Source: Escherichia coli (GTDB lineage: Bacteria; Pseudomonadota; Gammaproteobacteria; Enterobacterales; Enterobacteriaceae). From it: DNA of 64,000 nt. The stretch lies in assembly GCA_002099625.1 (NCBI GenBank), contig GCA_002099625.1_4857.1; one strand, 5' to 3'. Below the pieces are notes generated by a model. That model saw nothing but the letters and a program-made list of their open reading frames with translations. It was not told the origin of the DNA and did not search any database. The position numbers were made by a program, and so were the translations under genes. Shown piece after piece: positions 14,772 through 63,649 of the stretch (positions are counted from its first letter, which is position 1; every line of letters starts with the position of its first letter).

Positions 14772-14786
14772 AGATAATATCTATCT
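14772..14786 (-). promoter_or_regulatory. conserved 15-mer AGATAATATCTATCT (copy 1 of 5), putative phage promoter
   Basis: Exact 15-mer shared with four other sites; 39 nt upstream of the ATG of 13728..14732 on the minus strand. Confidence 0.55.
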
Positions 14787-14837
14787 CAGATTACTTTGGG
14801 CACGGGTTCATACCCAGTGCCCGTAACGTAAAAAACT

Positions 14838-15536
14838 TTAGGGTATTAGGCGTTGGGCTATTTCGCGGAGTTGGTCGCGGGTTAAATCAGCCAACTTCTG
14901 GTCGCCGAAGCCCAACTTCAGACCCAGCTCGTATCCAGCTTGCGGATACGTGTTCGTGTTTGCTACTGAGAGGAGTGCATCGGCTATCTTTACCATCGTT
15001 AACTCGAGAGACGCATACGGGGCGGGGATCGGCTGATTCACGATTTGGTAATTATAACGCACTGCGGCGTTATCGTAGTCAAACTCCATCCTTCTGCCGA
15101 GAACGTTAAACGACTCCGCAGAATAACTACCAAATGGGTGATTGGCTTTTTCCCACAAATCTTTCCGTTCAGTAAACCCAGTCGCGAAGTTCTGACGTAT
15201 GGTGTCGAATATTTGCGTTGCCTGGCTAGGGTGTATATTTTTCAGCTCATTGTAGTCGTAGTCGGCGATGGAATATAGAGTGAACACAACACCGTTTATA
15301 TTTAACTGCGGATAATCCATCCGCAGACTATCATCACCTTGTAAATGAAGTTCCCACATCCTCACCCACTGCAATATCGCACTTACCGCATCGTGACTGA
15401 GATAAAAATTAGTAGGTTCTTCAGAATTTTCACGGAAGGGAACAGAGCATTCCGATGCAAAAAAGCCGGCTGCCATAAATCCTCTGCCGTCGAACATAGG
15501 CGCAACTAATCTTGATTTTTCTAAATTGATTACCAT
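14838..15536 (-). CDS. hypothetical protein
   Basis: 232-aa ORF, ATG with AAGGAGA RBS; promoter motif 40 nt upstream, terminator further upstream. Confidence 0.55.
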   Translation of the reverse strand: MVINLEKSRLVAPMFDGRGFMAAGFFASECSVPFRENSEEPTNFYLSHDAVSAILQWVRMWELHLQGDDSLRMDYPQLNINGVVFTLYSIADYDYNELKNIHPSQATQIFDTIRQNFATGFTERKDLWEKANHPFGSYSAESFNVLGRRMEFDYDNAAVRYNYQIVNQPIPAPYASLELTMVKIADALLSVANTNTYPQAGYELGLKLGFGDQKLADLTRDQLREIAQRLIP

Positions 15537-15576
15537 TACTGTCTCCTTAAGTTAAAACCGAACGACTCTCTCCCTA

Positions 15577-15591
15577 AGATAATATCTATCT
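15577..15591 (-). promoter_or_regulatory. conserved 15-mer AGATAATATCTATCT (copy 2 of 5), putative phage promoter
   Basis: Exact 15-mer; sits between the capsid-candidate terminator (15602-15640) and the start of 14838..15536, 40 nt from the ATG. Confidence 0.55.
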
Positions 15592-15601
15592 ATAAATTTT
15601 T

Positions 15602-15640
15602 AGAAAAAAAGAAAAAGCTTACTCCCCGAAGGGAGTAAGC
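15602..15640 (-). terminator. intrinsic terminator downstream of the major capsid candidate
   Basis: Hairpin GCTTACTCCC-cgaa-GGGAGTAAGC (15617-15640) followed on the minus strand by TTTTTCTTTTTTTCT. Confidence 0.7.
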
Positions 15641-15671
15641 TAATCTTAGGCAACGTAATCCTTACGGATTA

Positions 15672-17969
15672 TTAGCCGCCAGCGCCTTCACCGCCAGTAC
15701 CTGGCTGGGTACCGCCGCCAACATCACCAGCATTACCACCGTCAGTACCGCCGGTACCGTTGGAAGTAGTAGTGACGTTGAACGCCAGTTTCTCTTCCAC
15801 GAACTTGGTGATACCTTTAATCCAGATCAGACCAGTGATCGGGCAGTGGCAGATGTGCGCGTTACGAGGCTGTACTGCCAGCTCTTTGCTGGTAGCGCCG
15901 TTACGCTGGATGTTGATGTTGGTTACCATGATCGGAGACCAGAAGTGGTTACCCCAGTTCAGAACACAGTAAGAACCATCATCAGCGGTTGGAACTTTCA
16001 GAACCCACTGCAGGCGGCGAGTCCAGCTGCCGTCAGCTTCGTTCTTCACACGCCAGCGGTCATCGTTGGTGGTGATAACTTCGTACTCGTAGCGATCGCC
16101 CAGCAGACGCTGGTCACCCTGAACCAGCAGCAGCATTGCAGCAGTCGGTTCGTCAGTTGCGATAACAACTTTCGGCAGTGCGTTCGGGTCCGCAGTCAGC
16201 AGGCGCAGAGCCGGCATGAAGCGAGAGTCCTGGATAGCACGAGTTACCTGGTCACCGATACGCTGTACCAGACCCTGACGGGCGTTGATGAGCGCATCTT
16301 TGGTATCCAGAGACTGGATCACTTTGTCCACTTCGTAGTCGCTTTCGCTGTACCACGGAGCAACCCAGTGACGGCCCAGGCCGCGGATAGCAGGTTTGTC
16401 CCACGGAGTGATCATGGACGCAGCTGCGTTCTTAACCGCTTCGGTGTAAGACAGAGTCTGAGTGATAGCCAGCATTTCGTTACGGATGTTAACCGCAGAA
16501 ACGAGGTCGTCCAGACGTTCGGTGTCGTCGTATTCAACGCCAACCGGAGATTTGGTCATGATCGGAGAACCGTACTGCAGTTTGTAGTTCTCTTGTTCCC
16601 AAATCGGGTCGAGCAGAAGGCCCTGGGTTCTCCGGTTCTCGTTGGTACGAGTACCGTCGAAGCGCCAGCCCAGCAGCTCCAGTTTCAGGTTGTCGATGAT
16701 CACTTTACCGGTGCCGCTTTCGATATCAACAGCAGTACCAGTTGCGTCGTACAGACCTTCGATTTCCAGAGACGGTGCAGTCACGTCAACACGACCAGAG
16801 AACTGACCGTTGGTGAACAGAGACATGCTGATGTTCATGGAATAACGAATGGTGTAATCGTTCTGTGCCAGAGCGGCCAGTGCCGGGATTTCAGCACCTT
16901 TCCAGTCCAGAGACTTGGCGTTCAGGGAGAACACGGTGCGACGGAACTGCAGGACCAGCTCACGGCCATCACCTTCAGGAGGACGCTGGAAAGTAGCGAA
17001 CTGCATGTCGCGTACGTTCAGTTTGATCAGCGCACCATCTTTCGCTTCTTCGGTCGGCTTACGCACAGACAGCAGCAGGCTACCCAGCGCCGCACCCGGT
17101 GCGATTTCGTCGGTTTCATCGTAACCTTCCTGCACGATACCCGGATGGGCAGACAGCTGGAACAGGTTCAGACGACGTTCAGAGAAGCTCAGGTAGTTGG
17201 TCGGATACGCCGGCACACGACCCAGCTGAACGTTTTCGTTTTCGATGATGTCTTCGGATACGAAGAACTTCGCGTTCTCGCCGGTTTCCATCACGTAAGG
17301 AACGATACGGATAGCATCGTCCTGCAGGACTTTGTGGTTAGACAGCGCGTTATGCAGCGGCTGACGGTTGTCTTCAACCACGTCTTTGGTCAGCAGGGCG
17401 TTCAGGATACCACGAGTTACAGTAGTAACTTTGGTACGAACGGTGATGCCGACGTCGTTGGTGTCCACAGTGATGGTCGGGAACAGGGTTTCTGCAAACT
17501 TGGATTGAGTTTCCAGAGCACGCACGTTCAGCGTCCAGGTCAGACCCAGGTTTTTGTCCAGGTCTTTGTTGGTGTAGTATTCGGTTGCGACCAGCGGAGT
17601 TTTACCGTAGTCAGCAGCCAGAGATGCTGCACCGGAAATAGCGATCGGCATGTAGCTGGCATATTCCGGCTTCGCGCTCTCAGCAGCAACACGGGTCATG
17701 AAGTCATCTTCGTGACCGGCAGCAGCCAGAATCATCGCAGAAGCAACCTGAGCAGCGTGGCTCATGGTTTTGCCAGGGTTTACAGCTTCGTAGTGCTGCT
17801 GAGCAGTGTCACGCAGGTTGGTGAAGCCGGCAGCATTTTTACGTACAGATTCGCCAACGGCTACGGTTTGCCATACGTCATTAGCGGAAGAGCCTGCCTT
17901 GGCAGCAGCGACCAGAGCATTGCCCTGCTGAACCAGCTGGTCCAGACTAGCGATACGGGTATCTTTCAT
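15672..17969 (-). CDS. putative major capsid protein (765 aa) with Ala-rich propeptide-like N-terminus and Gly-rich C-terminal tail; tail sheath is the alternative
   Basis: Strongly host-like codon bias (CTG, CGT, GGT, AAC dominate), own strong terminator, size in the range of phiKZ-type capsid proteins; N-terminal ~130 aa contain several S/A/G-x-E sites (AGHE, VGE, VATE). No homology search done. Confidence 0.45.
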   Translation of the reverse strand: MKDTRIASLDQLVQQGNALVAAAKAGSSANDVWQTVAVGESVRKNAAGFTNLRDTAQQHYEAVNPGKTMSHAAQVASAMILAAAGHEDDFMTRVAAESAKPEYASYMPIAISGAASLAADYGKTPLVATEYYTNKDLDKNLGLTWTLNVRALETQSKFAETLFPTITVDTNDVGITVRTKVTTVTRGILNALLTKDVVEDNRQPLHNALSNHKVLQDDAIRIVPYVMETGENAKFFVSEDIIENENVQLGRVPAYPTNYLSFSERRLNLFQLSAHPGIVQEGYDETDEIAPGAALGSLLLSVRKPTEEAKDGALIKLNVRDMQFATFQRPPEGDGRELVLQFRRTVFSLNAKSLDWKGAEIPALAALAQNDYTIRYSMNISMSLFTNGQFSGRVDVTAPSLEIEGLYDATGTAVDIESGTGKVIIDNLKLELLGWRFDGTRTNENRRTQGLLLDPIWEQENYKLQYGSPIMTKSPVGVEYDDTERLDDLVSAVNIRNEMLAITQTLSYTEAVKNAAASMITPWDKPAIRGLGRHWVAPWYSESDYEVDKVIQSLDTKDALINARQGLVQRIGDQVTRAIQDSRFMPALRLLTADPNALPKVVIATDEPTAAMLLLVQGDQRLLGDRYEYEVITTNDDRWRVKNEADGSWTRRLQWVLKVPTADDGSYCVLNWGNHFWSPIMVTNINIQRNGATSKELAVQPRNAHICHCPITGLIWIKGITKFVEEKLAFNVTTTSNGTGGTDGGNAGDVGGGTQPGTGGEGAGG

Positions 17970-17981
17970 TTCAAGTTTACC

Positions 17982-18506
17982 TTATTTAGATAAATGACAT
18001 GCGTACAACTGCGTCAGCACTTCGTGCGCAGCAAACTGCGTCGACGTACTGAACGTATCATCCACGACACGAGTCTTGGGACGCATATATTTAAAAAGTT
18101 CTGCGCAGAACATCTTTTTCGCAGCGTGGTCTTCACTTAAAGAAAAACCCGGTCCGGATTTAGCTTCTGCAAAAGACGCCACAACAACATCGCCACGTTG
18201 TGAGAACACCCAACGTAAACGACCGTCGAATGATTCCCCATATAAATCAGCAAGGGTTTCATTCGTACCTTTCTCAACCAGGTTTAAGACCTGGTCATAA
18301 TAAAGAGTCGGAAGTGCAGGTGGTGCCATAATCGATTTATAAATCGAAATAGGGTCACTCACTGGCAGTATGATGGAACTAAAGCCCGACGAGCAGTCAT
18401 ATAACCAGTTAAAGAAGCTTGCTTGGAGTTCCTCCAACTTTTTAACGCCAGCCCCTTTATCTATGTTAGATTGAACTTCCCACGGTGGACTAAAACGAAT
18501 TTGCAT
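17982..18506 (-). CDS. hypothetical protein
   Basis: Track ORF extends to 18560 and overlaps the divergent plus gene; the ATG at 18506 (MQIRFSPPWEV...) with GGAG about 10 nt upstream is the likelier start. Confidence 0.45.
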   Translation of the reverse strand: MQIRFSPPWEVQSNIDKGAGVKKLEELQASFFNWLYDCSSGFSSIILPVSDPISIYKSIMAPPALPTLYYDQVLNLVEKGTNETLADLYGESFDGRLRWVFSQRGDVVVASFAEAKSGPGFSLSEDHAAKKMFCAELFKYMRPKTRVVDDTFSTSTQFAAHEVLTQLYACHLSK

Positions 18507-18520
18507 TTTAAGGATGCTCC

Positions 18521-22263: not shown

Positions 22264-22445
22264 TAGTAAATCTCCTGCTGCATTGGAAACACATTACCTG
22301 TCGGTGAGACGAGTAAGACTTGCGCGGTAACGTGAACAATTTCTTCTTCGTCCTGATGACGAACACCGTTAGTGAGATTATCCCACTCACGTTTAACACG
22401 AGGGTGAGATAAGAACTCGGCAAACTGCGTATCAGAAAAGTCCAT
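22263..22445 (-). CDS. hypothetical small acidic protein (60 aa)
   Basis: ATG at 22445 shares a TAATG overlap with the stop of the upstream mini-gene; MDFSDTQFAEFLSHPRVKREWDN... Confidence 0.35.
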   Translation of the reverse strand: MDFSDTQFAEFLSHPRVKREWDNLTNGVRHQDEEEIVHVTAQVLLVSPTGNVFPMQQEIY

Positions 22446-22588
22446 TAGCCGCGACCTGTGCACATGGCAACAGAGTTACCGTTATCGATGCATTTGTTGT
22501 AATCTTGAGTTACAGTGATAGACAGTACCGCGAAAGCAACAACAGCAACGATTGCGAAGATGGCACGTTTATGGTTACGAGTTAACAT
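22445..22588 (-). CDS. small single-pass membrane protein (47 aa), below the ORF-track size cutoff
   Basis: ATG at 22588 with AGGAG 8 nt upstream; MLTRNHKRAIFAIVAVVAFAVLSITVTQDYNKCIDNGNSVAMCTGRG; first gene after the 24-bp promoter motif. Confidence 0.4.
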   Translation of the reverse strand: MLTRNHKRAIFAIVAVVAFAVLSITVTQDYNKCIDNGNSVAMCTGRG

Positions 22589-22640
22589 GGTAATACTCCT
22601 TTAGCTTAATAGTCGATTGAGTTGATAGATTGTCTTCTAT

Positions 22641-22664
22641 CACCTAGGTAATATATATCTGAAA
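22641..22664 (-). promoter_or_regulatory. conserved element CACCTAGGTAATATATATCTGAAA (copy 1 of 2), putative phage promoter
   Basis: 24/24 identity with 31146-31169 and similar over ~40 bp; about 50 nt upstream of the ATG at 22588; minus-strand reading contains TATATATTAC. Confidence 0.5.
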
Positions 22665-30338: not shown

Positions 30339-31100
30339 TTACGCTGCTGGTTCTTCAGCGGTTTTCACTTCAACTGGTTTCATCAACGAGTTCGCACAGT
30401 CGAAGATAGCATCCAGGAAACCACGGAACGGCTTCATGGCTTCACGCTGGGCGTTCTGACGTTCTTCTTCAATTGCTTCTTCTTGCGCCTGAATTTCTTC
30501 AGCAGTCAGCTCTGGGTGTTCCGTCATGCTTTCTGCCAGGGTCATCACTTTCGGCTGCGCATTCAGAATCGGAATACGGCGGATGACCTTGGTGATATTC
30601 CCGAGCTTCATGCCACCCAGCATGGTATCGAACAGCGTACCGAAATCTTGCAGTGGGTCTTCGCTGATTTCCAGTACCGCCGGAGTCGCAACCAGACCAA
30701 AGGCAATGACCAATTCAACGGCAGTGTCAGTGACGTGCGCAGCGAACGGGGTGTCTTCCATCTGCAGGTAATTGTTGCCATTATAGGTCACCGGAATGAA
30801 TTTGATTTCTTCCCCTTTCTTCAGTCGCAGTGTATCGACTGCGGCTTTGTACTGAACTTCGTACAGTTCCGGTTTAACACCGTCAACGTTATCCAGTGTA
30901 AAGAGCAGGTCACCAACCGCCATACGGCGCGGCAGTTTGCGTTTGTTGATTTCGCGCAGCCAGACTTGTAAGCCGGTGAATTGAATTGGGGACAGTCTAA
31001 TTTTAAAGCCGTTGGTTGCTTGCAGGATAGCACCGTCGTCTTCGCTACGTTCGATAGAGCCATTAGCCAGAGTAAGCAGATTGATAGTTTTCATTTTCAT
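30339..31100 (-). CDS. hypothetical protein
   Basis: 253-aa ORF; first gene downstream of the second copy of the 24-bp promoter motif. Confidence 0.5.
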   Translation of the reverse strand: MKMKTINLLTLANGSIERSEDDGAILQATNGFKIRLSPIQFTGLQVWLREINKRKLPRRMAVGDLLFTLDNVDGVKPELYEVQYKAAVDTLRLKKGEEIKFIPVTYNGNNYLQMEDTPFAAHVTDTAVELVIAFGLVATPAVLEISEDPLQDFGTLFDTMLGGMKLGNITKVIRRIPILNAQPKVMTLAESMTEHPELTAEEIQAQEEAIEEERQNAQREAMKPFRGFLDAIFDCANSLMKPVEVKTAEEPAA

Positions 31101-31145
31101 ATTCCTTAAGTAATGGTCAGTTAGTAAAGCAAATCATTGTTTGCT

Positions 31146-31169
31146 CACCTAGGTAATATATATCTGAAA
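31146..31169 (-). promoter_or_regulatory. conserved element CACCTAGGTAATATATATCTGAAA (copy 2 of 2), putative phage promoter
   Basis: 24/24 identity with 22641-22664; lies between the terminator 31187-31227 and the ATG at 31100, about 45 nt upstream. Confidence 0.5.
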
Positions 31170-31186: not shown

Positions 31187-31227
31187 CAAAAAAAGAAGAG
31201 GTAAATCCCCCACCGAAGTGGGGGATT
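31187..31227 (-). terminator. intrinsic terminator downstream of tandem paralogue A
   Basis: Hairpin AATCCCCC-accgaagt-GGGGGATT (31204-31227) followed on the minus strand by TACCTCTTCTTTTTTTGTC. Confidence 0.65.
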
Positions 31228-46799: not shown

Positions 46800-48098
46800 T
46801 TAGGTGATGTGGAATTTAGGGATGTACTCTTTAACCACGGTTTCACGACCGTGCATCGCACCCATTGCAGTGGTCATAACGTTCGAGAAGCCGGAAGAGA
46901 TATCCGCAGCGATTGCCCGTGGCTCTTCTGCTTTGTGTGCAGAGGCGCACGCCGCACAACAGTCTACGTGACCTTGCTGACATAAGATGGGTCGGCGGAG
47001 TCGAACAACTTTACCAAATTGAGTTTTCAAATACTCTTCAGTAAGTTGGGTAACTTTACCGTTAATCATCGCGTTCATGCCAACATAACGCTTGTAGTTA
47101 TACTGGTTAATTACAAGTGCATGTGTCAGTTTTGTCCCGCAATCTCCAGGCACGATTTTGTGGTTCTGGAAGATCATCTGGATGATACGTACTTGCTCCC
47201 CGCCCTTGGCAGTTTCTGCACCACGCATGAAGGAACCTTCTCGCGTATCATTGAATTTCTCTACCAGATACTTCATCCCGGTCTGATCAACTTCCATCAG
47301 ACTCGTTGGGATTAAGGTAAAATCTGCCCCTTCTTTAAAAGCGGTCTGAATACCGTACATCAGCATCAGCTTACGGCGACGCATACGCGCTTTAGGCGAG
47401 CTGTAGAACTCAACGGACTGGTCGCCACTCAACCACTCTTTATCAAGTTCGTCGAGAGCTTTTTCAATCATAACGATAACCGCAGGGTTATCCAGCTCGT
47501 CTTTATGCTTCAACAGCAACGCATCACGTACCTTATACGCGTCAGGATGCGTTGTAAGGCTTCTAATAGTACCGGTTGGGGCTATCCCACGACACAACGG
47601 GGCAAGCTCGTGTAGACCCCCTACAAAGCGTCCTATCATGTATGGTCGAATCGCGTCTTCGTTGTCTGGATCGGTGTCATCATATTCCACACAACGTTCG
47701 TACATCTCTTTACGGTAGGCTAGCGGGTCACGAGACTCTGCCAGATACGGGAGACGGGTACCGAAAGCGTAATAGATAGCAATCCAGTTAAAGACATAGC
47801 GACCCACGGTAGTCGGAATAGGACCAGCTAAACCTGGGTACATCTCAGGACGCAATTCAAACTGCTCTTCCGGCACGAACAGCTCTTCATCTTTTTTGCA
47901 CCCTTCAATCGGCACCCACTTGGTTTCTTCGTTTTCCCAGTAATGGGGCAAGCCGTCAATGTAGTTCAGGTCGTATTGCTCAGGTGGCTCACCTTTTTCA
48001 TTAAAGATAGCCACGTTGAAAACCGCAATACGCCACACCAGTCTACGCCAAGCTTCTGCTTTACACGCAGCGACCAGATAATCAATCTTGTTCATCAT
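46800..48098 (-). CDS. hypothetical protein with Cys-rich C-terminal cluster (432 aa)
   Basis: Long ORF; C-terminal CQQGHVDCCAACASAHK suggests a metal-binding site. Confidence 0.55.
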   Translation of the reverse strand: MMNKIDYLVAACKAEAWRRLVWRIAVFNVAIFNEKGEPPEQYDLNYIDGLPHYWENEETKWVPIEGCKKDEELFVPEEQFELRPEMYPGLAGPIPTTVGRYVFNWIAIYYAFGTRLPYLAESRDPLAYRKEMYERCVEYDDTDPDNEDAIRPYMIGRFVGGLHELAPLCRGIAPTGTIRSLTTHPDAYKVRDALLLKHKDELDNPAVIVMIEKALDELDKEWLSGDQSVEFYSSPKARMRRRKLMLMYGIQTAFKEGADFTLIPTSLMEVDQTGMKYLVEKFNDTREGSFMRGAETAKGGEQVRIIQMIFQNHKIVPGDCGTKLTHALVINQYNYKRYVGMNAMINGKVTQLTEEYLKTQFGKVVRLRRPILCQQGHVDCCAACASAHKAEEPRAIAADISSGFSNVMTTAMGAMHGRETVVKEYIPKFHIT

Positions 48099-54102: not shown

Positions 54103-56208
54103 TTACAACTCAATTACCACAGCGGCTCCTAGGTCATCGTACAACGATGCCGGGATTTTGTACTCGGTATAAAAACCAACGCGATCGATATTCCCCTGCT
54201 GTCCTTCAAACAACAACATCGGAATTGCCGAGCGCAAACTAATGAGCGTGTTGTGATCGACAAACCGTTTCCCGGTGGCATTAGTAGAATCCTCACTGTC
54301 AAATCCTACTGCCGGGAACGGATTGGTTGGCGACTCTACACGAGATATCGCCAACATAATCGCAATATGCGTCATCGGTATACCACTCAGCTTACGCTGG
54401 ATATACTTAAACGTGTCCATCAACGCATAAGTACACTGTTTCTCTGTAGCACCACCCATCTCAACCAACGTCACTGGTTTCACACGACCTTGTTTCTTGT
54501 TCAGCTTCACAGTCGATGCCGTGTTGATGATTTCCACAATGTCTTCGTTCTTATCGGCAGCAATCGAACGGAGCTTGGTTTCTAAGCCGGCTACGAACTC
54601 TGCCATCGATTCAGAACGGTTGGTGTAGACCAGGACCGGGTGTTTCGGGTTCCATCCTTTTAAGGGGATTTCTACTGTCTTCTTCTCGATACGAATGTTC
54701 GCTCGTTGTTTCAAGAAGTAGTGCAGGAACGGTTTAGAGAAGTTCCCACAAACACCCATTCGCACATCGATAGAATCCGCAGCGATTATCTGCCCATCTT
54801 CTAAACGACGTTGGAAAGTTAAGTCGGTGATTTCTGGTAATGCCGTTTCATCAATTGCATCGAGATCTTCATGATACGCAATCTGGCTCAGCTCCGAATA
54901 AATTTTGTCGGTAACAACCAACTCGTATTCTGACCAATTCCCACGCTGTGGTTTTGGCAGCAAGCACAACCCTTTCAGAGAGTTATGTTTGTATTCGGTC
55001 ATATACTCACGCATACGTGGGGTGAGTACCAGGTTGAGCAGATAACGCAAGAAGTCAAGGTGCTTGGTAGAGAGAATTCCCTGTGTACCCTTTTCCGAGA
55101 TGGACGTGGACGCCAGGTGACCTGGTGACGTACCTTCAGAGAGGTTATAAATCAAATCCCCCATACAGGTCGCACAGATGGACTGATTCGCCATCTCTTT
55201 ACAGGTCATGGCACTACGGAAGACCAGCGGTTTGCCAACCAGGTCTGCGTATCCACCTTTCTCAAATCTCAACCACGGACCATTATCGCCTTCTAAACGA
55301 TAACGCATCCCCACCATCGCTTTATAGGCACGCTCATCCAGCTGCGTATCCTTAAACGTGTAGCGGTGTGCGTGAGTTGTACCGCAGTCGTCGTACGTGA
55401 AATACATCAGTACGTTTGCTGCCAACTGCAGTTTACGTGAGGCGTATTCTGCTTCGGCAATCTTGTCAGTGTTGTACAAGTGGGAACGTGAAGTTGCACC
55501 GGATTCTTTCAAACGCGAAATAACCGAGTGCATTCCGGTAAAGAAGCCTTCCCACACCTGATTGGTGTATACACGTGAGTCAATTTCTGACGTTTTACCA
55601 CGCACGAAGGCTTGCAGTACCTGGTTCATCTTCACAGTACCGTCCAGTACCGACATCACGACCGGGTTATACCGTAGCGCAGGGTCTTTGAAGATTTTCT
55701 CGATAAGCTTGTACGCTTCTTCAACCATATCCTGACCATCTTCATCGTAGCCAGTAGGGTATTGCACTTCCCACTGACGGATGAGTTCGAAGTTCGGGTG
55801 GTCGTAGATCTCCATCATCGTATCAAAGTCGATTGTCGTACAATAGGACAGCAAGTTCTTCACTGTCATGTTGAACGCATCGGCGTAGACATGTTGACTC
55901 AGGATATAACGCGTTTCAGCAAGGTCGACACCTGCTTTACGGGCCAGTACCGCTGCTTCCGACATAAAGTCCAGATGCAGGTCATCTGTTGCTACCTGAC
56001 CTGGACGATACGCCATGGTCGATGGAGTGGGCACCTGCGGATACAGACGCGACACACCCCAATACGGCCAGCTGAGTTTGATGTGGCGACTAGACATTTC
56101 CAACGACTTACCATCGTCGAATGTCACGTAATAACGCCCGCGTAGTTTCCACACCTGATCAGAGTTAAGCATACGCAAATCACGTACGTGTACAGAACGA
56201 CCCGCCAT
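54103..56208 (-). CDS. hypothetical large protein (701 aa); possible RNA polymerase beta-prime-like C-terminal fragment
   Basis: TAATG overlap with the RNAP beta fragment gene; EKGTQGILSTKH weakly resembles the beta-prime trigger-loop motif GTQLTMRTFH. The RNAP assignment is tentative and the NADFDGD motif is absent. Confidence 0.5.
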   Translation of the reverse strand: MAGRSVHVRDLRMLNSDQVWKLRGRYYVTFDDGKSLEMSSRHIKLSWPYWGVSRLYPQVPTPSTMAYRPGQVATDDLHLDFMSEAAVLARKAGVDLAETRYILSQHVYADAFNMTVKNLLSYCTTIDFDTMMEIYDHPNFELIRQWEVQYPTGYDEDGQDMVEEAYKLIEKIFKDPALRYNPVVMSVLDGTVKMNQVLQAFVRGKTSEIDSRVYTNQVWEGFFTGMHSVISRLKESGATSRSHLYNTDKIAEAEYASRKLQLAANVLMYFTYDDCGTTHAHRYTFKDTQLDERAYKAMVGMRYRLEGDNGPWLRFEKGGYADLVGKPLVFRSAMTCKEMANQSICATCMGDLIYNLSEGTSPGHLASTSISEKGTQGILSTKHLDFLRYLLNLVLTPRMREYMTEYKHNSLKGLCLLPKPQRGNWSEYELVVTDKIYSELSQIAYHEDLDAIDETALPEITDLTFQRRLEDGQIIAADSIDVRMGVCGNFSKPFLHYFLKQRANIRIEKKTVEIPLKGWNPKHPVLVYTNRSESMAEFVAGLETKLRSIAADKNEDIVEIINTASTVKLNKKQGRVKPVTLVEMGGATEKQCTYALMDTFKYIQRKLSGIPMTHIAIMLAISRVESPTNPFPAVGFDSEDSTNATGKRFVDHNTLISLRSAIPMLLFEGQQGNIDRVGFYTEYKIPASLYDDLGAAVVIEL

Positions 56209-58445
56209 TATTTATCCTCCCGAATTGGACGCACTAATTCAAAACCTTCACAGCGATGGATGTTACGTATCATCCTGTCAATCTGCGAATCACCCATTGG
56301 TAGTTTCTTACGATCGACCAGCACCCCTGGATTGGTTGGTGTTGGCGAGTTATACAGCCCCGTTACGATCGCACGGTGTACCGCTGGGTTATTAGCGCGG
56401 TCATGAGTTTCGGGGAAGTTGCCCGGACCAAAGCCGTCGGTAAGACGCTGCTCGGAAGGACCACCCCACTTCAACCCTTTCAGGTTAATCGGATATGAAC
56501 CACGTCCTTGGTTGGATGCATCAATACAACCCAAATAGTTCGTGTACATCGACGAGATACTGGAGAACTCACGACCGGTTTTATCCAGGCGCAGAGTCTC
56601 TACCATGCCGACGTAGAACTGGTTCTTCGTCCACTCTTTCTCACCCTGATAGTTAGTAATCAGTAGCTTAGACTTGCGTGGTGCATACTCGCCTAGAGCA
56701 CGGCAGATTTCTACCTGGGTGGCATTCAATTCGTGGGGAAGCCAGATACGAATCGTGAAGTCGTAAATCTCTTTAAAGAGTTCCAGACGTGACCCAGTAT
56801 CCGGGTGACTGGCATTGAGATAGAATGTCCAGCGTGGGTTATAGCGATCGATATAGTCCATCAGGATTTCCCAGGCTTCATCAACCTGGTTGGCGGCAAG
56901 TAATGGTTTCAACCGCATCTTCAACTGCTCGGATGCAGCAGACCAATACATGTGGAACAGCGCAGCATAAGTCGAACGACGAATTACGGCGTTCATGGAA
57001 CGAATGACATGCACACGTTCTCCGAACTCGTTAATCGGCATTTCTTCATCAGGCCGCACTGCGCCCACGATACCTTTTGTACCTGAACGGTCGGTGATTT
57101 TCGATGAGACGGTAACTGGGATTGGATAACGTACCACGATGCGTATCGTGTAACTACCAATTGGGTCCCAGAGACCACGCTGAACCGGCTGCGCCAGTTT
57201 GTTCAACACGTTCTTATCAGCAGAACGGTTATACTCGCCTTTGCGCATGGCTTCATCGTATTCACGACCAATCTCTTCACGGAAGTCGTTATAGACTTCA
57301 TACGTCTCAGAACAGAACGCCTTGTCGAGAATCTCAAACGCTTTCGGTGACCAGACAATATTCTTGTCCTTGGACATCGCAAAATAGAACCGCACGATAT
57401 CATTGTAAAAACGTTTCAAAGCGTTCGCGTAGTGATCTAACTCGCGTTTGTTCTCTTCGGTACATGCGATATTGTTAACACCACGATCGCATTTGGTTTC
57501 GTCCCGCCATACCTGAATATCAACGACACGAGAACCAGTACGTTCCATCTTTTCAAAGTCGCCAGCCTGACGCGCTTTGTAATGCTCAGGGTCGGCATCA
57601 ACATACTCACAACGGTCGAAGTGCGGAGAGATATGTTGTGTTTCGCCCACGTGTGAGTCAATAGCCGCCCACAGCTTATCGAAACGACGCGCGGCTATAA
57701 CCAACCCATCATCGCGAATTGCCTGTCCTTTATTGGGCAGGTACTGTGGTCGACGAACGCCATCAATACCCGTTGTCCCATACGTATCAAGCAGGTACTC
57801 GTCGTCGCGCAAGGTAAAGTCGATTGCACGCAAACCATAAGCGTGCATCGCCTTCGCTGCAGTTTCGGAGATGGTGTACGAGTCCTCGATAATGTCCGGG
57901 TGCGACATTGTCACAGTGTGCAGGTTGACCCCATCGACAAACTCACCGTCTTTCTGTGCCGGCAGCACGGTAAGCATTTCATCTTTTTCCAGGTGCTGAG
58001 TCTGCCCGCGCAGCAACGCCTGAAGTTTCCCAGTAGCCTCTTTCTTAGACGAGAAAATGTTATCGTGGTTGGTGTAATACTTGATATCGATTACATCAAT
58101 CATCACTTTGCGCTGGTTGGTTAAATCTGCGCGCGTGAAGAAGATAACATGTTGGAGCGGATCGTGATCCCCTTCACGACCATAGCGTGCAAAAACAGCT
58201 GCACGAGTAACACCTTCTTTGGTTGTGTAACTGCACACGGTACCACTATCTTCCACGATATCGTTAAAACAATAATCGTGGTAGTTCACATCAGCGCCGG
58301 TAAAATGGATAGTCGGGTCTGGATTGTCCAGTGGTACCGCCGACTTCATATGTCCACCCACCATTGAGGCACGTGCCCCAGATACGCCAGTGATATTCAC
58401 CTCACGGTCAGCAACGCTTGACATGAGTTCGACTGGTGTTTTCAT
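56208..58445 (-). CDS. multisubunit RNA polymerase beta subunit, C-terminal fragment (745 aa)
   Basis: DRSGTKGIVGAVRPDEEMPINEFGERVHVI aligns with the conserved bacterial RpoB block [30 protein letters not shown]; downstream LKGLKWGGPSEQR resembles LGGKAQFGGQR. ATG with AAGGAG RBS; promoter 15-mer 30 nt upstream. Confidence 0.65.
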   Translation of the reverse strand: MKTPVELMSSVADREVNITGVSGARASMVGGHMKSAVPLDNPDPTIHFTGADVNYHDYCFNDIVEDSGTVCSYTTKEGVTRAAVFARYGREGDHDPLQHVIFFTRADLTNQRKVMIDVIDIKYYTNHDNIFSSKKEATGKLQALLRGQTQHLEKDEMLTVLPAQKDGEFVDGVNLHTVTMSHPDIIEDSYTISETAAKAMHAYGLRAIDFTLRDDEYLLDTYGTTGIDGVRRPQYLPNKGQAIRDDGLVIAARRFDKLWAAIDSHVGETQHISPHFDRCEYVDADPEHYKARQAGDFEKMERTGSRVVDIQVWRDETKCDRGVNNIACTEENKRELDHYANALKRFYNDIVRFYFAMSKDKNIVWSPKAFEILDKAFCSETYEVYNDFREEIGREYDEAMRKGEYNRSADKNVLNKLAQPVQRGLWDPIGSYTIRIVVRYPIPVTVSSKITDRSGTKGIVGAVRPDEEMPINEFGERVHVIRSMNAVIRRSTYAALFHMYWSAASEQLKMRLKPLLAANQVDEAWEILMDYIDRYNPRWTFYLNASHPDTGSRLELFKEIYDFTIRIWLPHELNATQVEICRALGEYAPRKSKLLITNYQGEKEWTKNQFYVGMVETLRLDKTGREFSSISSMYTNYLGCIDASNQGRGSYPINLKGLKWGGPSEQRLTDGFGPGNFPETHDRANNPAVHRAIVTGLYNSPTPTNPGVLVDRKKLPMGDSQIDRMIRNIHRCEGFELVRPIREDK

Positions 58446-58475
58446 TCGTAAATGCTCCTTTTGGTTACCTCGGTA

Positions 58476-58490
58476 AGATAATATCTATCT
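58476..58490 (-). promoter_or_regulatory. conserved 15-mer AGATAATATCTATCT (copy 3 of 5), in a 66-bp divergent intergenic region
   Basis: Exact 15-mer; 30 nt from the minus-strand ATG at 58445 and 21 nt from the plus-strand ATG at 58512, so it could serve either gene. Confidence 0.55.
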
Positions 58491-58511: not shown

Positions 58512-58835
58512 ATGCTAGATAAATTTGCTACCTTATCCGAAATAATACCTTCGCCTGATTCGACCAAGTATAAGGTGTTGCATGACTATACAGACTTCCT
58601 TCGCAAACACCCAGATACTACAGAAGAAGTTGTTGACCCAAAATATGCCTACCCAGAGGTACACAGTTTCTACGCGTACTGTCGTCTCAAACAGTACGAT
58701 AATAGTATTATTTATCCGATGATGTTAATGAACGGAATTTCTACTCCGTTTGATTTCACGCCAGAGATAAGGACCTTATTGGTTCCTAGTGTCGGTGTGG
58801 TAAGTAACATCTTATCGACTATCGTAGAATCTTGA
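58512..58835 (+). CDS. hypothetical small protein (107 aa), visibly more AT-rich than its neighbours
   Basis: ATG with AAGGAGAG RBS; lone plus-strand gene; lower GC and different codon usage by eye. Confidence 0.5.
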   Translation: MLDKFATLSEIIPSPDSTKYKVLHDYTDFLRKHPDTTEEVVDPKYAYPEVHSFYAYCRLKQYDNSIIYPMMLMNGISTPFDFTPEIRTLLVPSVGVVSNILSTIVES

Positions 58836-58866
58836 AAAAAAGAAGGGACGCCCAGTCCCTTCTTTC
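58834..58866. terminator. terminator hairpin between convergent genes
   Basis: Hairpin GAAGGGAC-gccca-GTCCCTTC (58842-58862) with an A-run upstream (U-tract for the minus strand) and a weak TTTCT downstream. Confidence 0.5.
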
Positions 58867-58872
58867 TAACGC

Positions 58873-60240
58873 TTAACGTAAATTAGCTGATGAGAATGGT
58901 AGGTTGCCTAAACTGCTGCTACTTCCGCCACCTAAACCACCCAGACCACCTAACACGTCACTACTCCCTCCTAAGAGGTTGGTGCTACCGCCGCCCAACT
59001 GCGTGCTACCCCCCAAGAGATTATTACTACTTCCCAGCAAACCAGAACCCAGACCACTTTCTTTCGTCACCGCATTACCACGCAGCGCCTCACCGAGAGA
59101 CAGTTCTTTAATTGTCCCTTTCGGTAAATGGCCGTTGTTCTCACGCAGCGCTTCCTGAATCTTCGGTGCTAACGCATTGAAGCTATTAGCTGAAGACGCC
59201 TGTTGCGCTTTCTTCGCACGGAAATAGTTTACCGGATCGTTGAGATCAAGATTTTCCTGCGGAGCTTGTTGAGAAGCTAAAGCAACGACCGGCTTTGTGC
59301 CGGCAGGTGTACGCCCGATACGGAAATCCGTTGCGGTGGTGTCTGTTGCCTGATCGGTGCGTGGGCCGGTATTATACGGCAGAGTTTGGATAACGTTATC
59401 ATAAACGCTCATGTTATCCAGTTGGCCAATCCATTCTTCTTCTAACGGACGCAGTGGAGTGTGGTCACGCAGACCACGAACCACTTGATTGTAGTTGGTC
59501 ACGTATTGTGCCCAACCGCGTGCCAAAGAACCGAAGTACGGACGCGGATCGTTAGAACCCGTAACCGAAGGATACCAACCAAACACTGCAGTGAGCAGGT
59601 TAAAGATAATGACCTTATCCTGCTTACGCTGGAGCTTGGCACCGAAGAATGTTGCCGTACCATCCAGCGACTCTTCTTCAAACATGTGTTTGTAGTTCGC
59701 CACACGGATATATTTGATACCTTCAATGGTCATATCGCTGGAGATGAAGATACTGGTGATCTTTGTCTTTTTATCTTCTTCCAGCAACCCGTAAACGTAG
59801 TTCTTCACTGCGTGCCAGCTCTGAACCAGTTTCTTATCCATCGTTGGATCTTTCAGGTCAGCACAAACCACATCGCTTAAAAACTTCTTGTACGCTGCCA
59901 GACGGATATTTTTTCCTTCGGCTGCTGTTTCCAAAATCGCATCGATTAACTCGAAGCTTTTCAGGAAGAGGTTCGCGTTGATGGCTTTCTTCAGGAAACG
60001 AATCGTTCCAGATTCGCCAGCCAGTACCGATTCACACAGTGGGTGGAACGCATGACATTCACTACCTTCGTCATCTTCCAACCCACGCTTAATCATCGCT
60101 GCAGTTGGAAGCACCAAGCGGCGCTTCACTTTGTTGTAGGTGAACATTGCCGGATGACCATCATCGATAGTCAGCATGTCACCTTCGAATCCGTATCCGA
60201 GCGAGGTCAGAAACGAACGGTAGAATTCAATCAATTTCAT
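58873..60240 (-). CDS. hypothetical protein with Gly/Leu/Ser-rich low-complexity C-terminal tail (455 aa)
   Basis: C-terminal ~60 aa GLGSGLLGSSNNLLGGSTQLGGGSTNLLGGSSDVLGGLGGLGGGSSSSLGNL... Confidence 0.55.
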   Translation of the reverse strand: MKLIEFYRSFLTSLGYGFEGDMLTIDDGHPAMFTYNKVKRRLVLPTAAMIKRGLEDDEGSECHAFHPLCESVLAGESGTIRFLKKAINANLFLKSFELIDAILETAAEGKNIRLAAYKKFLSDVVCADLKDPTMDKKLVQSWHAVKNYVYGLLEEDKKTKITSIFISSDMTIEGIKYIRVANYKHMFEEESLDGTATFFGAKLQRKQDKVIIFNLLTAVFGWYPSVTGSNDPRPYFGSLARGWAQYVTNYNQVVRGLRDHTPLRPLEEEWIGQLDNMSVYDNVIQTLPYNTGPRTDQATDTTATDFRIGRTPAGTKPVVALASQQAPQENLDLNDPVNYFRAKKAQQASSANSFNALAPKIQEALRENNGHLPKGTIKELSLGEALRGNAVTKESGLGSGLLGSSNNLLGGSTQLGGGSTNLLGGSSDVLGGLGGLGGGSSSSLGNLPFSSANLR

Positions 60241-60252
60241 GGTTAATAATCC

Positions 60253-61953
60253 TTAATCAATGAGACCGTTGCCGAGTCCGTTTCCGCCTATACCGCCTAA
60301 GCCACCACCCAGGTCAAGACCTCCAAGAGGATCTAAGCCACCTGTGTTAGTTGGAATGTTAGATAGCATTCGACCCCGGCCTTGGCCTTTCTCGAATTCT
60401 GTATAACCTTCTTCCACGGCTTTCAACAGCGTTGCGGTGTTCTGTGCCAGCTCACCAACGTATTTGAGATCGGTGGTGTTGCCGGTATGGAGACGGAATT
60501 GCATAAACGACGCGTAGGTGTAATATTCCAGCGGTTCGTCGTCGACACGGATTTCAATACGAGTAACGGTCCCCAACAATGCGGTGACCAGCATGTGGCA
60601 GCGAATATGGTTATGTTTAGTAACCTGAACCATCGCTTCTTTCATGTTCTGCAAGAAACGACGACCTAATGCAGCAGGTAACTGATGGTGCGTGATGCTG
60701 CTGACTGAGTTAGGAATAACTTCCAACGTAGGCTCTATCATGATATCTGTGTTGCGGTTATCAAAGACAAAGCTCACTTCACCAATCAGGTTACGTGACA
60801 TAATCGGCCCGATAGACATAGCCAGATCATACGCAACTAGACTACCCTGCGTGGAGAAGCCATTACGTCCAATCCAGTGGTCGGTTTGGTTAACCAGCCC
60901 TGCACCCAACCCACGGCGACTTGCCAGCGCCAGCGATTCACGGATACATTCATCCAACCGCATTGGGTTGACAATCGCATTACGCAAATCAGCCAAACGG
61001 AACGTCGCCTTACTGGTTGCTTTCCAACCGCCAGATACATCAGACATCCCGTTCTGGAGTGCTTGACGCATCGCAGCAATCAGTTCGTGGTTGCTGTAGT
61101 TACGGATAACACCACGCTGCTTCAATTCAGATTCAACGCCGATGGAGTTATTACCTGCAAAGAAGCTTTCCACGCTACCGAGTTCGGTATCTACCCCAGA
61201 GCTTGCCAGATACGCATTACTGATGGCAGATACGTAGTTTTCTGGACGCTGGAGTTGGGATACCATCAACTGTGGTGCAGAGCTACTGGTTGCGGATAGC
61301 ACAGAGTCGCTCGTTGGGACGAACTTCTCACCGCTATTCATTTCAATACGTTTTACCATGTCCGCTGCTTTCGCGATCGAAATGATATCTACCGTACTTT
61401 CTGTTTGACCTTCAACAGACAGCGCTTTCGATAAAACGTAGTTATCCAGTAGACGGAATGAGTCTGGGTTCAATGTTTTGCCGCCCAGGGCATCGTGTGT
61501 ATACGTTGCCTGTAAGCCGTAGATGTCGTTAATGTACAACACCATATCGTCCGGCAGCAGGCTACCCAGGCTGGTTTCTGCCTGACTGGTATAACCGGAT
61601 ACGATGTATTGCGTTTCCTGAGTGCGTGTTGCATTCAGAGGTTTAGCAATAAACACCGCCACGAAGTTAAAGATACCGGTATCACGTGATTCCCATTGGA
61701 ACTGTACAGGACGATTGTCATCATCGGACACGTTGATGAATGGACGCTCAAAACCATTCTGGGTGCCATCGAAGCCCACGATGGCAGATAATGCTTCTTG
61801 ATACTGCTGTGTTCCCACAGCTTTTTCCCCGCCCAGTTCAACCGCTGCTGCTAAGTCATCCAGTGCACCCGTCGATGCGTTAAAGCCGATGCGGCGACGA
61901 ACTTGCTCTGGAACATCGTAGACCGGATACATCAGTAGATTTACAAGCTGCAT
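60253..61953 (-). CDS. hypothetical protein with Gly/Leu-rich C-terminal tail (566 aa)
   Basis: C-terminus GGLDPLGGLDLGGGLGGIGGNGLGNGLID; adjacent to another Gly-tailed protein. Confidence 0.55.
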   Translation of the reverse strand: MQLVNLLMYPVYDVPEQVRRRIGFNASTGALDDLAAAVELGGEKAVGTQQYQEALSAIVGFDGTQNGFERPFINVSDDDNRPVQFQWESRDTGIFNFVAVFIAKPLNATRTQETQYIVSGYTSQAETSLGSLLPDDMVLYINDIYGLQATYTHDALGGKTLNPDSFRLLDNYVLSKALSVEGQTESTVDIISIAKAADMVKRIEMNSGEKFVPTSDSVLSATSSSAPQLMVSQLQRPENYVSAISNAYLASSGVDTELGSVESFFAGNNSIGVESELKQRGVIRNYSNHELIAAMRQALQNGMSDVSGGWKATSKATFRLADLRNAIVNPMRLDECIRESLALASRRGLGAGLVNQTDHWIGRNGFSTQGSLVAYDLAMSIGPIMSRNLIGEVSFVFDNRNTDIMIEPTLEVIPNSVSSITHHQLPAALGRRFLQNMKEAMVQVTKHNHIRCHMLVTALLGTVTRIEIRVDDEPLEYYTYASFMQFRLHTGNTTDLKYVGELAQNTATLLKAVEEGYTEFEKGQGRGRMLSNIPTNTGGLDPLGGLDLGGGLGGIGGNGLGNGLID

Positions 61954-61965
61954 TTTAAATACTCC

Positions 61966-63600
61966 TTAAGAATTAAACCATTCAACTTCTTCTAACTTGC
62001 GACGTGCATTCAACACCATAAACTCCGCCAGGCTATTGTGCAGTGACAAGTGAGGTATATAGTTTGGCTGATCCGTCTCACACTTCAGCAGCGCAGCTGC
62101 TTCTGGTGTAGCCCTGAGATGGAACAGATACGGGTTGATGTGATCCTTGTGTAACAAGGTCAGTGATTCCCGTGGTGTAGATTGCGGTTCGAGATTACGC
62201 GGGTTGCGATACTCCTGAAGATAATATCTATCTAAATCTGCTTTGAGTTCAGATCGAATTGGGTCGGCTGCATAACCGGCAGACATCTCAGAACGCACCA
62301 TATTGCAACTTAACAGTTGCGCAACGTCATACATTCCATAATTGAGATAAGTTGCCTGTGCCAACGCCATACCGTAGCGAAACGCTTCTGGCCCACATTC
62401 AGTATACGTCTTATAATGCGCGCTACGATGGAGTGCTAATGCGACTAACCATTCGTGCAACGTATAGACAGGACCGTCATGTGTTGCCAGTTGCGAATCA
62501 ATCAATAACTTAACATCTGCTGGAGCGGCATTATCCAGACGCATTGTTTTCAAGAAAGAGCGGTATTCTTTAAATACGTACTCGGTACGGACGTATTCTT
62601 TCATCTGTGCAGGAGAACGTGCCTGCACCAAATCCATGGCGTTTATCTTACCCTTTTCGCCATTGAATACCACACTTTCCGGATGCGCTTTTAACAGCAC
62701 CGGCTGGTTAGAGATTTTGTTTGCAAAACCTGTTTCAATCTCTTGTTTAACCAGAAAATACATGCCGGTGACGATATTGTTGTTAACCATGATTTCAACC
62801 GGTAATTCACCACCGACTTCACGGACAGCCAACAATTTAATAATAGCATACGCCAGGATATAATCTTCCATCATATCCGTGCCATAGCCCCGCACCGTAG
62901 CCAGTACCGACAAACTGGTGCTGTTCGTACCTTTGTTTGCCAGTTCTTTTTCTACCTTTTCCATCACTGTCTGTAGGAACCCACGCAGTTTCGGAATAGC
63001 AGGTAAAGACATGACTTCCGTGTCTTGAAGCATCTCCAGACAGTATGTCAGATTGTACACCATTTTCCGGTGTGTTTCGATTGGCAAGTTCTTACCTATC
63101 GGGAACGTCCCCATGGTGAGGAACACCGGAATATACGGTTTAATCATCAGAACCAGTATCAACAACTCGTAATAGTCCGGACGAATGTACGTCATCGCTT
63201 CCGGATAATTACTGTTCATTTCATCGTGCGTATCTTCCATGTTCTGCGGAATCCACAGCTTATCGATGGGATACAGCTTACGATACACTTCGGCCTTGTG
63301 GAACTTCGCAATCGTCTGCACAATCTTCGGCATGTGCTTACGCTGCGTTTCCGTCGATTCGTTTGCCAGCTCGTCCAGCATCAGATACGCCATGAACAGT
63401 TCATCTTGTTCGTCTGGCGTTAAATAATCCCACACGCGTTGTAATTCCATGAAGAGAATGTTGTCGCGTGCAATCTGTTTACCTTTAACAGTGATGTAGT
63501 CGGGTGCGTTGTTATCCTTCCGATAACGTAAGCCAATAAATGTGACCTCTTGACCGTGATGCTCGATTGTCATCCGGTCTTTAATCTTCGTAATTTTCAT
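61966..63600 (-). CDS. hypothetical protein (544 aa)
   Basis: ATG with GGAG RBS; promoter 15-mer 34 nt upstream; one further 15-mer copy is embedded in its 3' coding region. Confidence 0.55.
   Translation of the reverse strand: MKITKIKDRMTIEHHGQEVTFIGLRYRKDNNAPDYITVKGKQIARDNILFMELQRVWDYLTPDEQDELFMAYLMLDELANESTETQRKHMPKIVQTIAKFHKAEVYRKLYPIDKLWIPQNMEDTHDEMNSNYPEAMTYIRPDYYELLILVLMIKPYIPVFLTMGTFPIGKNLPIETHRKMVYNLTYCLEMLQDTEVMSLPAIPKLRGFLQTVMEKVEKELANKGTNSTSLSVLATVRGYGTDMMEDYILAYAIIKLLAVREVGGELPVEIMVNNNIVTGMYFLVKQEIETGFANKISNQPVLLKAHPESVVFNGEKGKINAMDLVQARSPAQMKEYVRTEYVFKEYRSFLKTMRLDNAAPADVKLLIDSQLATHDGPVYTLHEWLVALALHRSAHYKTYTECGPEAFRYGMALAQATYLNYGMYDVAQLLSCNMVRSEMSAGYAADPIRSELKADLDRYYLQEYRNPRNLEPQSTPRESLTLLHKDHINPYLFHLRATPEAAALLKCETDQPNYIPHLSLHNSLAEFMVLNARRKLEEVEWFNS
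62219..62233 (-). promoter_or_regulatory. conserved 15-mer AGATAATATCTATCT (copy 4 of 5), embedded in coding sequence
   Basis: Exact 15-mer inside 61966..63600 (encoding DRYYLQ), about 265 nt upstream of the start of 60253..61953; candidate internal promoter. Confidence 0.4.
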
Positions 63601-63634
63601 TATAGTTGAACTCCGCGAATAGTCGATTGCACTG

Positions 63635-63649
63635 AGATAATATCTATCT
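63635..63649 (-). promoter_or_regulatory. conserved 15-mer AGATAATATCTATCT (copy 5 of 5), putative phage promoter
   Basis: Exact 15-mer 34 nt upstream of the ATG at 63600. Confidence 0.55.

Follow-up and report, generated by a model that had tools for sequence, protein, structure and literature searches.

The closest described counterparts of the element reported here are the early promoters of jumbo phages that encode RNA polymerases (RNAPs). In AR9 the early promoter, which is used by the virion RNAP, has the form AAATATATATTAT-(6N)-G(+1), and its start sites were mapped experimentally and are independent of protein synthesis (PMC5312081). For OBP an early promoter of the form BSHAWWWWWTTTYARRYAKATATTATYWWADTG has been predicted (PMC7058600 Table 2). 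According to a review, which draws on Lavysh et al. 2016, an early motif of this sort can be detected in all jumbo phages that encode an RNAP (PMC7598289), and the genes for the non-virion RNAP subunits are expected to be early genes (PMC7598289). In SPN3US the virion RNAP consists of gp42, gp218, gp240, gp241 and gp244 (PMC5694885). In the accessible literature we found neither an SPN3US-specific promoter description or experimental start-site map nor, for any Seoulvirus, measurements of transcript 5' ends, of their timing or of the polymerase on which they depend.

Here we analyse a stretch of 64,000 nucleotides (the window) that is 99% identical to published SPN3US-type genomes and belongs to an SPN3US-like jumbo phage (Seoulvirus). 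We conclude with high confidence that a 15-mer repeated in this DNA forms the early-promoter core of this SPN3US-like, phiKZ-related phage. Because near-identical consensuses have been published for OBP and N1M2 and the review claims generality, this kind of promoter is already known; it has been described for phiKZ-related jumbo phages, and the element is, even on a generous reading, a further member of that class. An earlier note on this DNA had proposed a phage promoter recognised by a polymerase or factor of the phage itself instead of by host sigma70. Placement, conservation, the missing -35, the RNAP genes and the published consensuses all support that proposal, but the note did not recognise that the promoter class was known.

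Anatomy of the element and its likeness to published early promoters

An exact search of the window for AGATAATATCTATCT returned five copies, at 14772, 15577, 58476, 62219 and 63635, all on the plus strand and without mismatches, just as the earlier note had reported; none is expected by chance, and 100 shuffles that preserved dinucleotide composition yielded no match. Read on the gene (minus) strand the repeat is AGATAGATATTATCT. The claim that four copies lie 30-40 nt upstream of minus-strand starts also holds, the measured distances to the next ATG being 39 nt for 14772 (ATG 14732), 40 nt for 15577 (ATG 15536), 30 nt for 58476 (ATG 58445) and 34 nt for 63635 (ATG 63600). The start listed behind 14772, TTG 14756, agrees neither with the start in relatives nor with the PHROG alignment, and ATG 14732 was taken instead. 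The copy at 62219 lies inside a 544-aa ORF (61966..63600), with the next ATG 265 nt away.

The 15-mer is real, but it spans only -19 to -5 of an element of about 35 nt, and the note had missed two members of the same promoter family, the two-mismatch variants AGGTAATATATATCT at 22646 and 31151. On the gene strand the element comprises T at -32, AA at -29/-28, an A-rich tract, TTTC, AGATA(G/T)ATATTA(T/C)CT, four unspecified positions and an invariant G(+1) followed by A, with the consensus TTTCAGATAGATATTATCTAnGTG. With a position matrix of 41 nt, exactly seven sites are found in the window, namely the five exact copies and the two variants, all on the gene strand and at 34-47 bits, with a next-best score of at most 8 bits in the window and a maximum of 8 bits in shuffled sequence. 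Across 21 sites, positions -17 to -8, which hold the AT-rich ATATTA(Y) core, are invariant or nearly so, and conservation extends upstream to the -20 and -30 regions (TTTC at -23 to -20, A at -29/-28, T at -32); at the sequence level, all 21 sites have the invariant G at a distance of exactly 6 nt from the end of ATATTAY. The sites fall into two subclasses with coupled positions (G...T versus T...C), class I with the core AGATAGATATTATCT and class II with the core AGATATATATTACCT.

This anatomy agrees with that of published early promoters. The consensus TTTCAGATAGATATTATCTAnGTG agrees base for base with the early promoters predicted for Pseudomonas phage OBP (TTTYARRYAKATATTATYWWADTG) and Klebsiella phage N1M2 (PMC7058600 Table 2), and the window consensus AAAAAATTTCAGATAGATATTATCTAnGTG satisfies every position specified in them, the shared features being the upstream A/T tract, TTTCA, the K position, ATATTAT and the downstream GTG. 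In these phages, as here, the sites head early-type operons that include RNAP subunit genes, and both the OBP/N1M2 motif and the window element are predictions. The phages differ in genus and hosts, the present one being a Seoulvirus on Salmonella/E. coli, and the element described here has two coupled subclasses, class II having a conserved leader of its own. With the AR9 early promoter the element shares the ATATATTAT core and the 6-nt spacer to a G start (PMC5312081), strong sequence sensitivity, and placement on one strand and between genes, and the ATATTAT-(6N)-G(+1) register is also that of phiKZ and phiR1-37 (PMC5312081); AR9, however, infects Bacillus and carries uracil in its DNA, and the upstream half of its promoter is AAAT where the present element has TTTCAGATA. 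The early core of phiKZ and 201phi2-1, TATATTAC, is contained exactly in the class II form (PMC7058600 Table 2; PMC8244752, PMC11512511), and these phages share the conservation blocks at -10, -20 and -30 (PMC11512511) and leaders of about 30-40 nt (PMC8244752, PMC11512511). In 201phi2-1 an early promoter is not near every non-virion RNAP gene, whereas here one is found near the gp68-, gp71-73- and gp74-like genes.

Placement across the SPN3US genome and conservation in relatives

The 11-nt core has 16 matches in the complete SPN3US genome, all on the plus strand, which is the main coding strand; 14 of the 16 are fully intergenic in a genome that is 6.4% intergenic (binomial P = 1.9e-15). Copies scattered at random relative to genes or strand, which the earlier note had named as the outcome that would speak against a promoter, are not what is observed. 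Most of these sites lie 32-100 nt ahead of a start codon, the exception being a tandem pair, and five sites with one mismatch are likewise intergenic and ahead of genes. The total of about 21 sites genome-wide is lower than the 28-41 early promoters reported for phiKZ and AR9 (41 sites in AR9), so that weaker variants may have been missed. A one-mismatch core within a gene at SPN3US 50795, which has neither the G nor the context around it, was dropped as a chance match, and the remaining intragenic one-mismatch matches were also treated as chance. The element occurs in multiple copies, in one orientation and largely between genes, at the head of putative early operons.

SPAsTU (78% identity), Asesino, CR5, Machina and Kwan, which together represent five genera, keep the promoter sites at orthologous positions, and the flanks of these sites diverge while the promoter element stays.

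Sites, leaders and downstream genes in the window

All seven sites are read on the minus strand. The class I core at 15577..15591 (47.4 bits, predicted +1 G at 15572) would drive a 232-aa ORF (14838..15536) that has the Shine-Dalgarno sequence AAGGAG and an ATG 40 nt past the core. Directly upstream, a terminator-like hairpin with a T-run (15616..15641, minus strand; 11-pair stem, TTTTTCTTTTT tail) ends the major capsid gene 15672..17969. The claim that two copies follow an intrinsic terminator applies to this one, but not to 14772, where the hairpin has no T-run. The class I core at 14772..14786 (41.5 bits, predicted +1 G at 14767) would drive a 334-aa gene (ATG 14732, end 13728) and probably also the polymerase-like gene 11938..13716, the PHROG matches of these genes being phrog_7286 and phrog_2943 'polymerase'. 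The class II core at 22646..22660 (45.9 bits, predicted +1 G at 22641) precedes a 47-aa ORF (22445..22588), and its minus-strand leader contains a hairpin (22624..22641), the box AATCGACTAT (22609..22618), a Shine-Dalgarno sequence and the ATG at 22588. The second class II core, at 31151..31165 (45.1 bits, predicted +1 G at 31146), has a 5' hairpin at 31127..31146 and would drive a 253-aa ORF (30339..31100) and genes downstream; upstream of it lies a minus-strand terminator hairpin (TCCCCCACTTCGGTGGGGGA, 31206..31225) followed by a T-rich tract.

The remaining three sites lie before or within genes of the non-virion RNAP. The class I core at 58476..58490 (34.5 bits, predicted +1 G at 58471) lies in a divergent intergenic gap, is kept in six lineages and would drive non-virion RNAP genes on the minus strand: a 745-aa homolog of phiKZ gp71-73 (56208..58445; 7ogp_C, 1.8e-29 in a PDB sequence search) and a 701-aa homolog of gp74 (54103..56208; 7ogp_D, 1.2e-38 in the same search). 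The class I core at 63635..63649 (42.3 bits, predicted +1 G at 63630), whose leader contains AATCGACTAT (63619..63628), is intergenic in annotated relatives and would drive the 544-aa minus-strand homolog of phiKZ gp68 (61966..63600; 7ogp_B, 2.8e-06 over residues 47-434; phrog_3209), gp68 being the fifth subunit of the non-virion RNAP. The gp68-, gp71-73- and gp74-like genes each lie directly behind one promoter site. Within the gp68-like gene, the intragenic core at 62219..62233 (37.4 bits, predicted +1 G at 62214, codons L-D-R-Y-Y-L) is kept in six lineages, and in CR5 the amino acids change but the DNA agrees with the promoter variant found in that phage. From its predicted start to the next ATG (61953) is 261 nt, and this copy probably acts as a genuine internal promoter of the 566-aa and 455-aa genes that follow, ORFs for which no relative with a solved structure was found. 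Among ten downstream proteins Pfam gave no match, and PHROG assignments were mostly 'unknown function'.

The ortholog of gp42, a virion RNAP subunit, is 46800..48098, as assigned by position and size (PMC5694885); the matrix scan finds no promoter site before this virion-RNAP gene, and none before the minus-strand structural blocks in the window. The phage is of the type that encodes two split multisubunit RNAPs, one virion and one non-virion: the genome is SPN3US-type, the window encodes homologs of the non-virion RNAP, and SPN3US has a virion RNAP.

In many leaders a stem-loop starts exactly at the predicted +1 G, and one such 5' stem-loop has given way, between phages of 99% identity, to a different sequence that also folds; an Rfam search of the window gave no RNA family match. 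We rejected AATCGACTAT as a second (late) promoter class because it is absent at structural genes and keeps a fixed spacing of about 20 nt before start codons. A more far-reaching proposal, which we put forward only tentatively and hold to be rather unlikely, is that (i) the subclasses, I with AGATAGATATTATCT and II with AGATATATATTACCT and a stem-loop/AATCGACTAT/Shine-Dalgarno leader, form two separately evolving or regulated early sub-regulons, (ii) AATCGACTAT is a new post-transcriptional control site, and (iii) the intragenic promoter in the gp68-like gene is under DNA-level selection across five genera.

Recognition of the element and its meaning for SPN3US-type phages

That the element is a host sigma70-dependent early promoter, with TATTAT as the -10 hexamer and the start 7 nt downstream, is improbable. 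The early genes of many phages are transcribed by host RNAP, and the AT-rich TATTAT of class I is one position off TATAAT, at an equal distance to the start and in correct register to the invariant G, so that use by host RNAP is possible for class I; however, no TTGACA-like -35 is conserved at the 16-18 nt spacing expected of a sigma70 promoter (positions -36 to -30 are ACACTCA-like and of low information), the TG of an extended -10 is missing, and a sigma70 scan calls the motif TATTAT as -10 at no copy, with counts equal to those of shuffled sequence. In a sigma70 -10 hexamer the T at -7 is critical, and class II, with TATTAC, has C in its place. A sigma70 promoter was rejected on the absent -35, the scan counts and this C; it would also leave unexplained at least 15 invariant positions outside the hexamer in a conserved stretch of about 35 nt, and the homologous motifs of AR9 and phiKZ function independently of host RNAP and of new protein synthesis (PMC5312081, PMC7598289). 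We consider it most improbable, too, that the element is a palindromic operator of a phage DNA-binding regulator or a DNA-hairpin promoter of the N4 type. The inverted arms AGATA...TATCT to which the earlier note had drawn attention are indeed present, 5 bp long, in all five exact copies, and a gene for a helix-turn-helix protein lies behind one SPN3US site (94310..94675), but the symmetry is broken in class II (AGATA...TACCT), Asesino (...TATCC) and CR5 (ACATATATGTTATC); hence the arms are incidental and the operator and hairpin readings were rejected. The strict one-way orientation and fixed spacing to the G and to start codons would, moreover, not be needed by a symmetric operator.

As to the two phage polymerases, sequence alone cannot tell which one reads the element, and in 201phi2-1 some non-virion RNAP genes lie behind middle promoters (PMC11512511). 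Nevertheless, a promoter of the middle class, read by the non-virion RNAP, is very unlikely: given that three subunit genes of this enzyme stand directly behind sites, it cannot be the first to transcribe its own genes; its known promoters differ (TATG in phiKZ, AACA-(6N)-TA/G in AR9; PMC7598289); and the motif agrees with the early promoters that have been mapped in AR9 and phiKZ. By analogy with AR9, phiKZ and 201phi2-1, the early promoter is very probably read by the virion-carried phage RNAP, and we infer that the invariant G is the exact start site and that the promoter is active early.

In this model, a five-subunit virion RNAP, composed of the orthologs of SPN3US gp42, gp218, gp240, gp241 and gp244, would enter the cell together with the DNA and bind the extended AT-rich element centred near -10, host sigma70 not being needed. 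Transcription would start at the invariant G, 6 nt past ATATTAY, to give early mRNAs with leaders of 26-36 nt and often a 5' stem-loop at the start. These transcripts would encode the non-virion polymerase subunits (the gp68, gp71-73 and gp74 homologs), and the non-virion polymerase would then take over middle and late transcription.

The promoter map adds no new type of element. It provides a precise map of early promoters and predicted starts for SPN3US-type phages, with seven sites in the window and about 21 genome-wide, in a group in which SPN3US serves as a model for the genetics of giant phages and its relatives are considered for the biocontrol of Salmonella. It also shows that jumbo phages of Bacillus, Pseudomonas and enterobacteria share the core of the virion-polymerase promoter.

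Element structure and genomic placement

The window shares 99.3% identity with Escherichia phage vB_EcoM_EC001 and 98.9% with Salmonella phage SPN3US (genus Seoulvirus). These phiKZ-related jumbo phages, 240 kb in size, carry two split multisubunit RNA polymerases. On the window's plus strand AGATAATATCTATCT occurs in five exact copies, at 14772, 15577, 58476, 62219 and 63635, and 100 dinucleotide-preserving shuffles of the window yielded none. Because the genes here lie on the minus strand, the functional reading of this 15-mer is AGATAGATATTATCT. A mismatch-tolerant search of the window added two sites, at 22646 and 31151, that share an identical pair of substitutions (AGGTAATATATATCT; gene-strand form AGATATATATTACCT). 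The earlier note had placed four copies 30-40 nt upstream of minus-strand starts, and the distances to the next ATG, measured as 39, 40, 30 and 34 nt for four of the five, agree with this.

Alignment of 22 candidates drawn from the whole SPN3US genome, 21 of them credible and used for a position matrix, indicates that the 15-mer is the middle of a longer element. Its upstream part has T at -32, A at both -29 and -28, then a stretch rich in A, and TTTC at -23 to -20; the core AGATA(G/T)ATATTA(T/C)CT spans -19 to -5 and is followed by four weakly constrained bases, an invariant G and then A. The matrix, for which 7 of the 21 training sites are orthologous to the window's own sites and the other 14 are independent, finds exactly seven sites in the window, all on the minus strand and scoring 34-47 bits; the rest of the window reaches at most 8 bits, as does the shuffled-sequence maximum. 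Transcription is predicted to start at 14767, 15572, 22641, 31146, 58471, 62214 and 63630.

The sites fall into two coupled subclasses: class I, the five exact copies in the window, has G at -14 with T at -7, and class II (22646 and 31151) has T at -14 with C at -7. Among the 21 SPN3US sites, 13 are G-T, six T-C and two mixed. Given that a leader cassette is common to all T-C sites in SPN3US, the coupling may reflect duplication of promoter-leader modules instead of functional covariation.

Placement across SPN3US follows what the earlier note had anticipated for a promoter. All 16 exact matches to the 11-nt core ATAKATATTAY are on the plus strand, which carries 231 of the 264 genes, and 14 are fully intergenic in a genome that is 6.4% intergenic (binomial P = 1.9e-15). 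Most sites have a start codon 32-100 nt downstream, one member of a tandem pair is 239 nt from its start codon, and the five 1-mismatch sites are likewise intergenic and upstream of genes. None of these sites precedes any of the minus-strand virion structural gene blocks of SPN3US.

Conservation and the genes behind the sites

SPAsTU (78% identity) and Erwinia phage Asesino (68%) have sites at the orthologous positions upstream of two polymerase operons and one further gene, and CR5, Machina and Kwan share the two that precede the polymerase operons; the phages with conserved sites together represent five genera. The motif ATA(G/T)AT(A/G/T)TTATC and the G are retained; the neighbouring intergenic sequence has diverged.

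Homologs of the phiKZ non-virion RNAP subunits gp71-73 and gp74 lie downstream of copy 58476 (7ogp_C, 1.8e-29; 7ogp_D, 1.2e-38), copy 63635 is followed by a homolog of this enzyme's fifth subunit, gp68 (7ogp_B, 2.8e-06), and copy 14772 heads an operon with a polymerase-like gene (phrog_2943). The virion RNAP of SPN3US consists of gp42, gp218, gp240, gp241 and gp244 (PMC5694885); 46800..48098 is, by position and size, the gp42 ortholog, and the matrix scan of the window found no promoter site at this gene. The tandem promoters 15577 and 14772 flank a 232-aa minus-strand ORF (14838-15536, phrog_15414), which is intact in the window. In the SPN3US RefSeq sequence (reference piece L003:22500-22700), an internal deletion of ~610 nt leaves this ORF as a short stub and the promoters 198 nt apart.

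Copy 62219-62233 lies inside a 544-aa gp68-like ORF (61966..63600, minus strand), where it encodes L-D-R-Y-Y-L. Both the AAA upstream of it and the G are retained, and each of the six lineages examined, which span five genera, has this copy. In CR5 the residues DR are replaced by EI, and the DNA is still promoter-like, matching CR5's own variant AAATATAT..TTATC. Because the residues differ while the DNA tracks the CR5 promoter variant, selection appears to act on the DNA, and from these sequence comparisons copy 62219 is probably a functional, maintained internal promoter. Transcription from it would begin at 62214, giving a 261-nt leader ahead of the next gene.

A 117-aa TTG ORF (63600-63953, minus strand) overlaps promoter copy 63635; neither EC001 nor SPN3US has it annotated, and it is unlikely to be a gene.

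Features of the leaders

Predicted leaders in the window are 26-36 nt long, compared with the 31-40 nt typical of phiKZ (PMC8244752). In many leaders a stem-loop begins exactly at the predicted +1 G, with z < -1.5 in 10 of 22 and unrelated stem sequences; examples are 22624-22641 and 31127-31146 (minus strand) in the window and L003:6313-6332, among others, in SPN3US. The hairpin at 31146 and its SPN3US ortholog have wholly different sequences in phages that are 99% identical, and both fold. The +1 stem-loop may be a 5'-end stabiliser.

The 10-mer AATCGACTAT occurs in the window at 22609-22618 and 63619-63628 (minus strand) and in SPN3US eight times, always on the plus (coding) strand (23831, 65455, 93795, 94280, 166644, 167592, 222528 and 223318; ~0.2 expected). 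Six of the eight SPN3US copies are ~20-30 nt upstream of a start codon, adjoining the Shine-Dalgarno site on its upstream side. This leader element occurs with or without an early promoter close by.

A probable early promoter of the phiKZ-related type

The early promoters of AR9, which do not depend on protein synthesis and whose start sites were mapped with dRNA-seq and primer extension, have the form AAATATATATTAT-(6N)-G(+1), and in phiKZ and phiR1-37 the consensus element is followed, 6 nt downstream, by the start site (PMC5312081); the register here, ATATTAY-(6N)-G, is identical to that of AR9. Early promoters have been predicted for N1M2, OBP, 201phi2-1, EL and phiKZ (PMC7058600, Table 2), and the window consensus TTTCAGATAGATATTATCTAnGTG fits the predicted OBP/N1M2 motif TTTYARRYAKATATTATYWWADTG at all positions. 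Class II includes the phiKZ core TATATTAC, and promoters of phiKZ and 201phi2-1 are reported to be conserved at -10, -20 and -30 (PMC11512511). Because register, consensus and block conservation match these published promoters, the element belongs to a known family; according to a review, jumbo phages that encode an RNAP each have an identifiable motif of this kind (PMC7598289).

That the element is a host sigma70 promoter is very unlikely: TATTAT of class I is in the correct register for sigma70, but there is no conserved -35 or TG motif, a sigma70 scan leaves the sites uncalled, and class II has C at the position where sigma70 requires T-7. Recognition by the non-virion RNAP is less likely still, given that the genes for this enzyme are themselves behind these sites and it cannot be the first to transcribe them. 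The AGATA/TATCT inverted arms described in the earlier note are present in the exact copies, but this symmetry is lost in class II, Asesino and CR5, making a palindromic operator or hairpin promoter the least credible reading.

The earlier note's proposal of a phage promoter is instead borne out by placement, conservation, the genes behind the sites and the published consensuses. Together these indicate a real, functional feature of the kind already described as early promoters in phiKZ-related jumbo phages, so its novelty is low. Which enzyme reads the element, when it does so and where exactly transcription starts are inferred by homology. In the expected cascade the virion enzyme reads the early genes, including those for the non-virion RNAP (PMC7598289); here, the injected virion RNAP would transcribe early genes, those for the non-virion RNAP among them.
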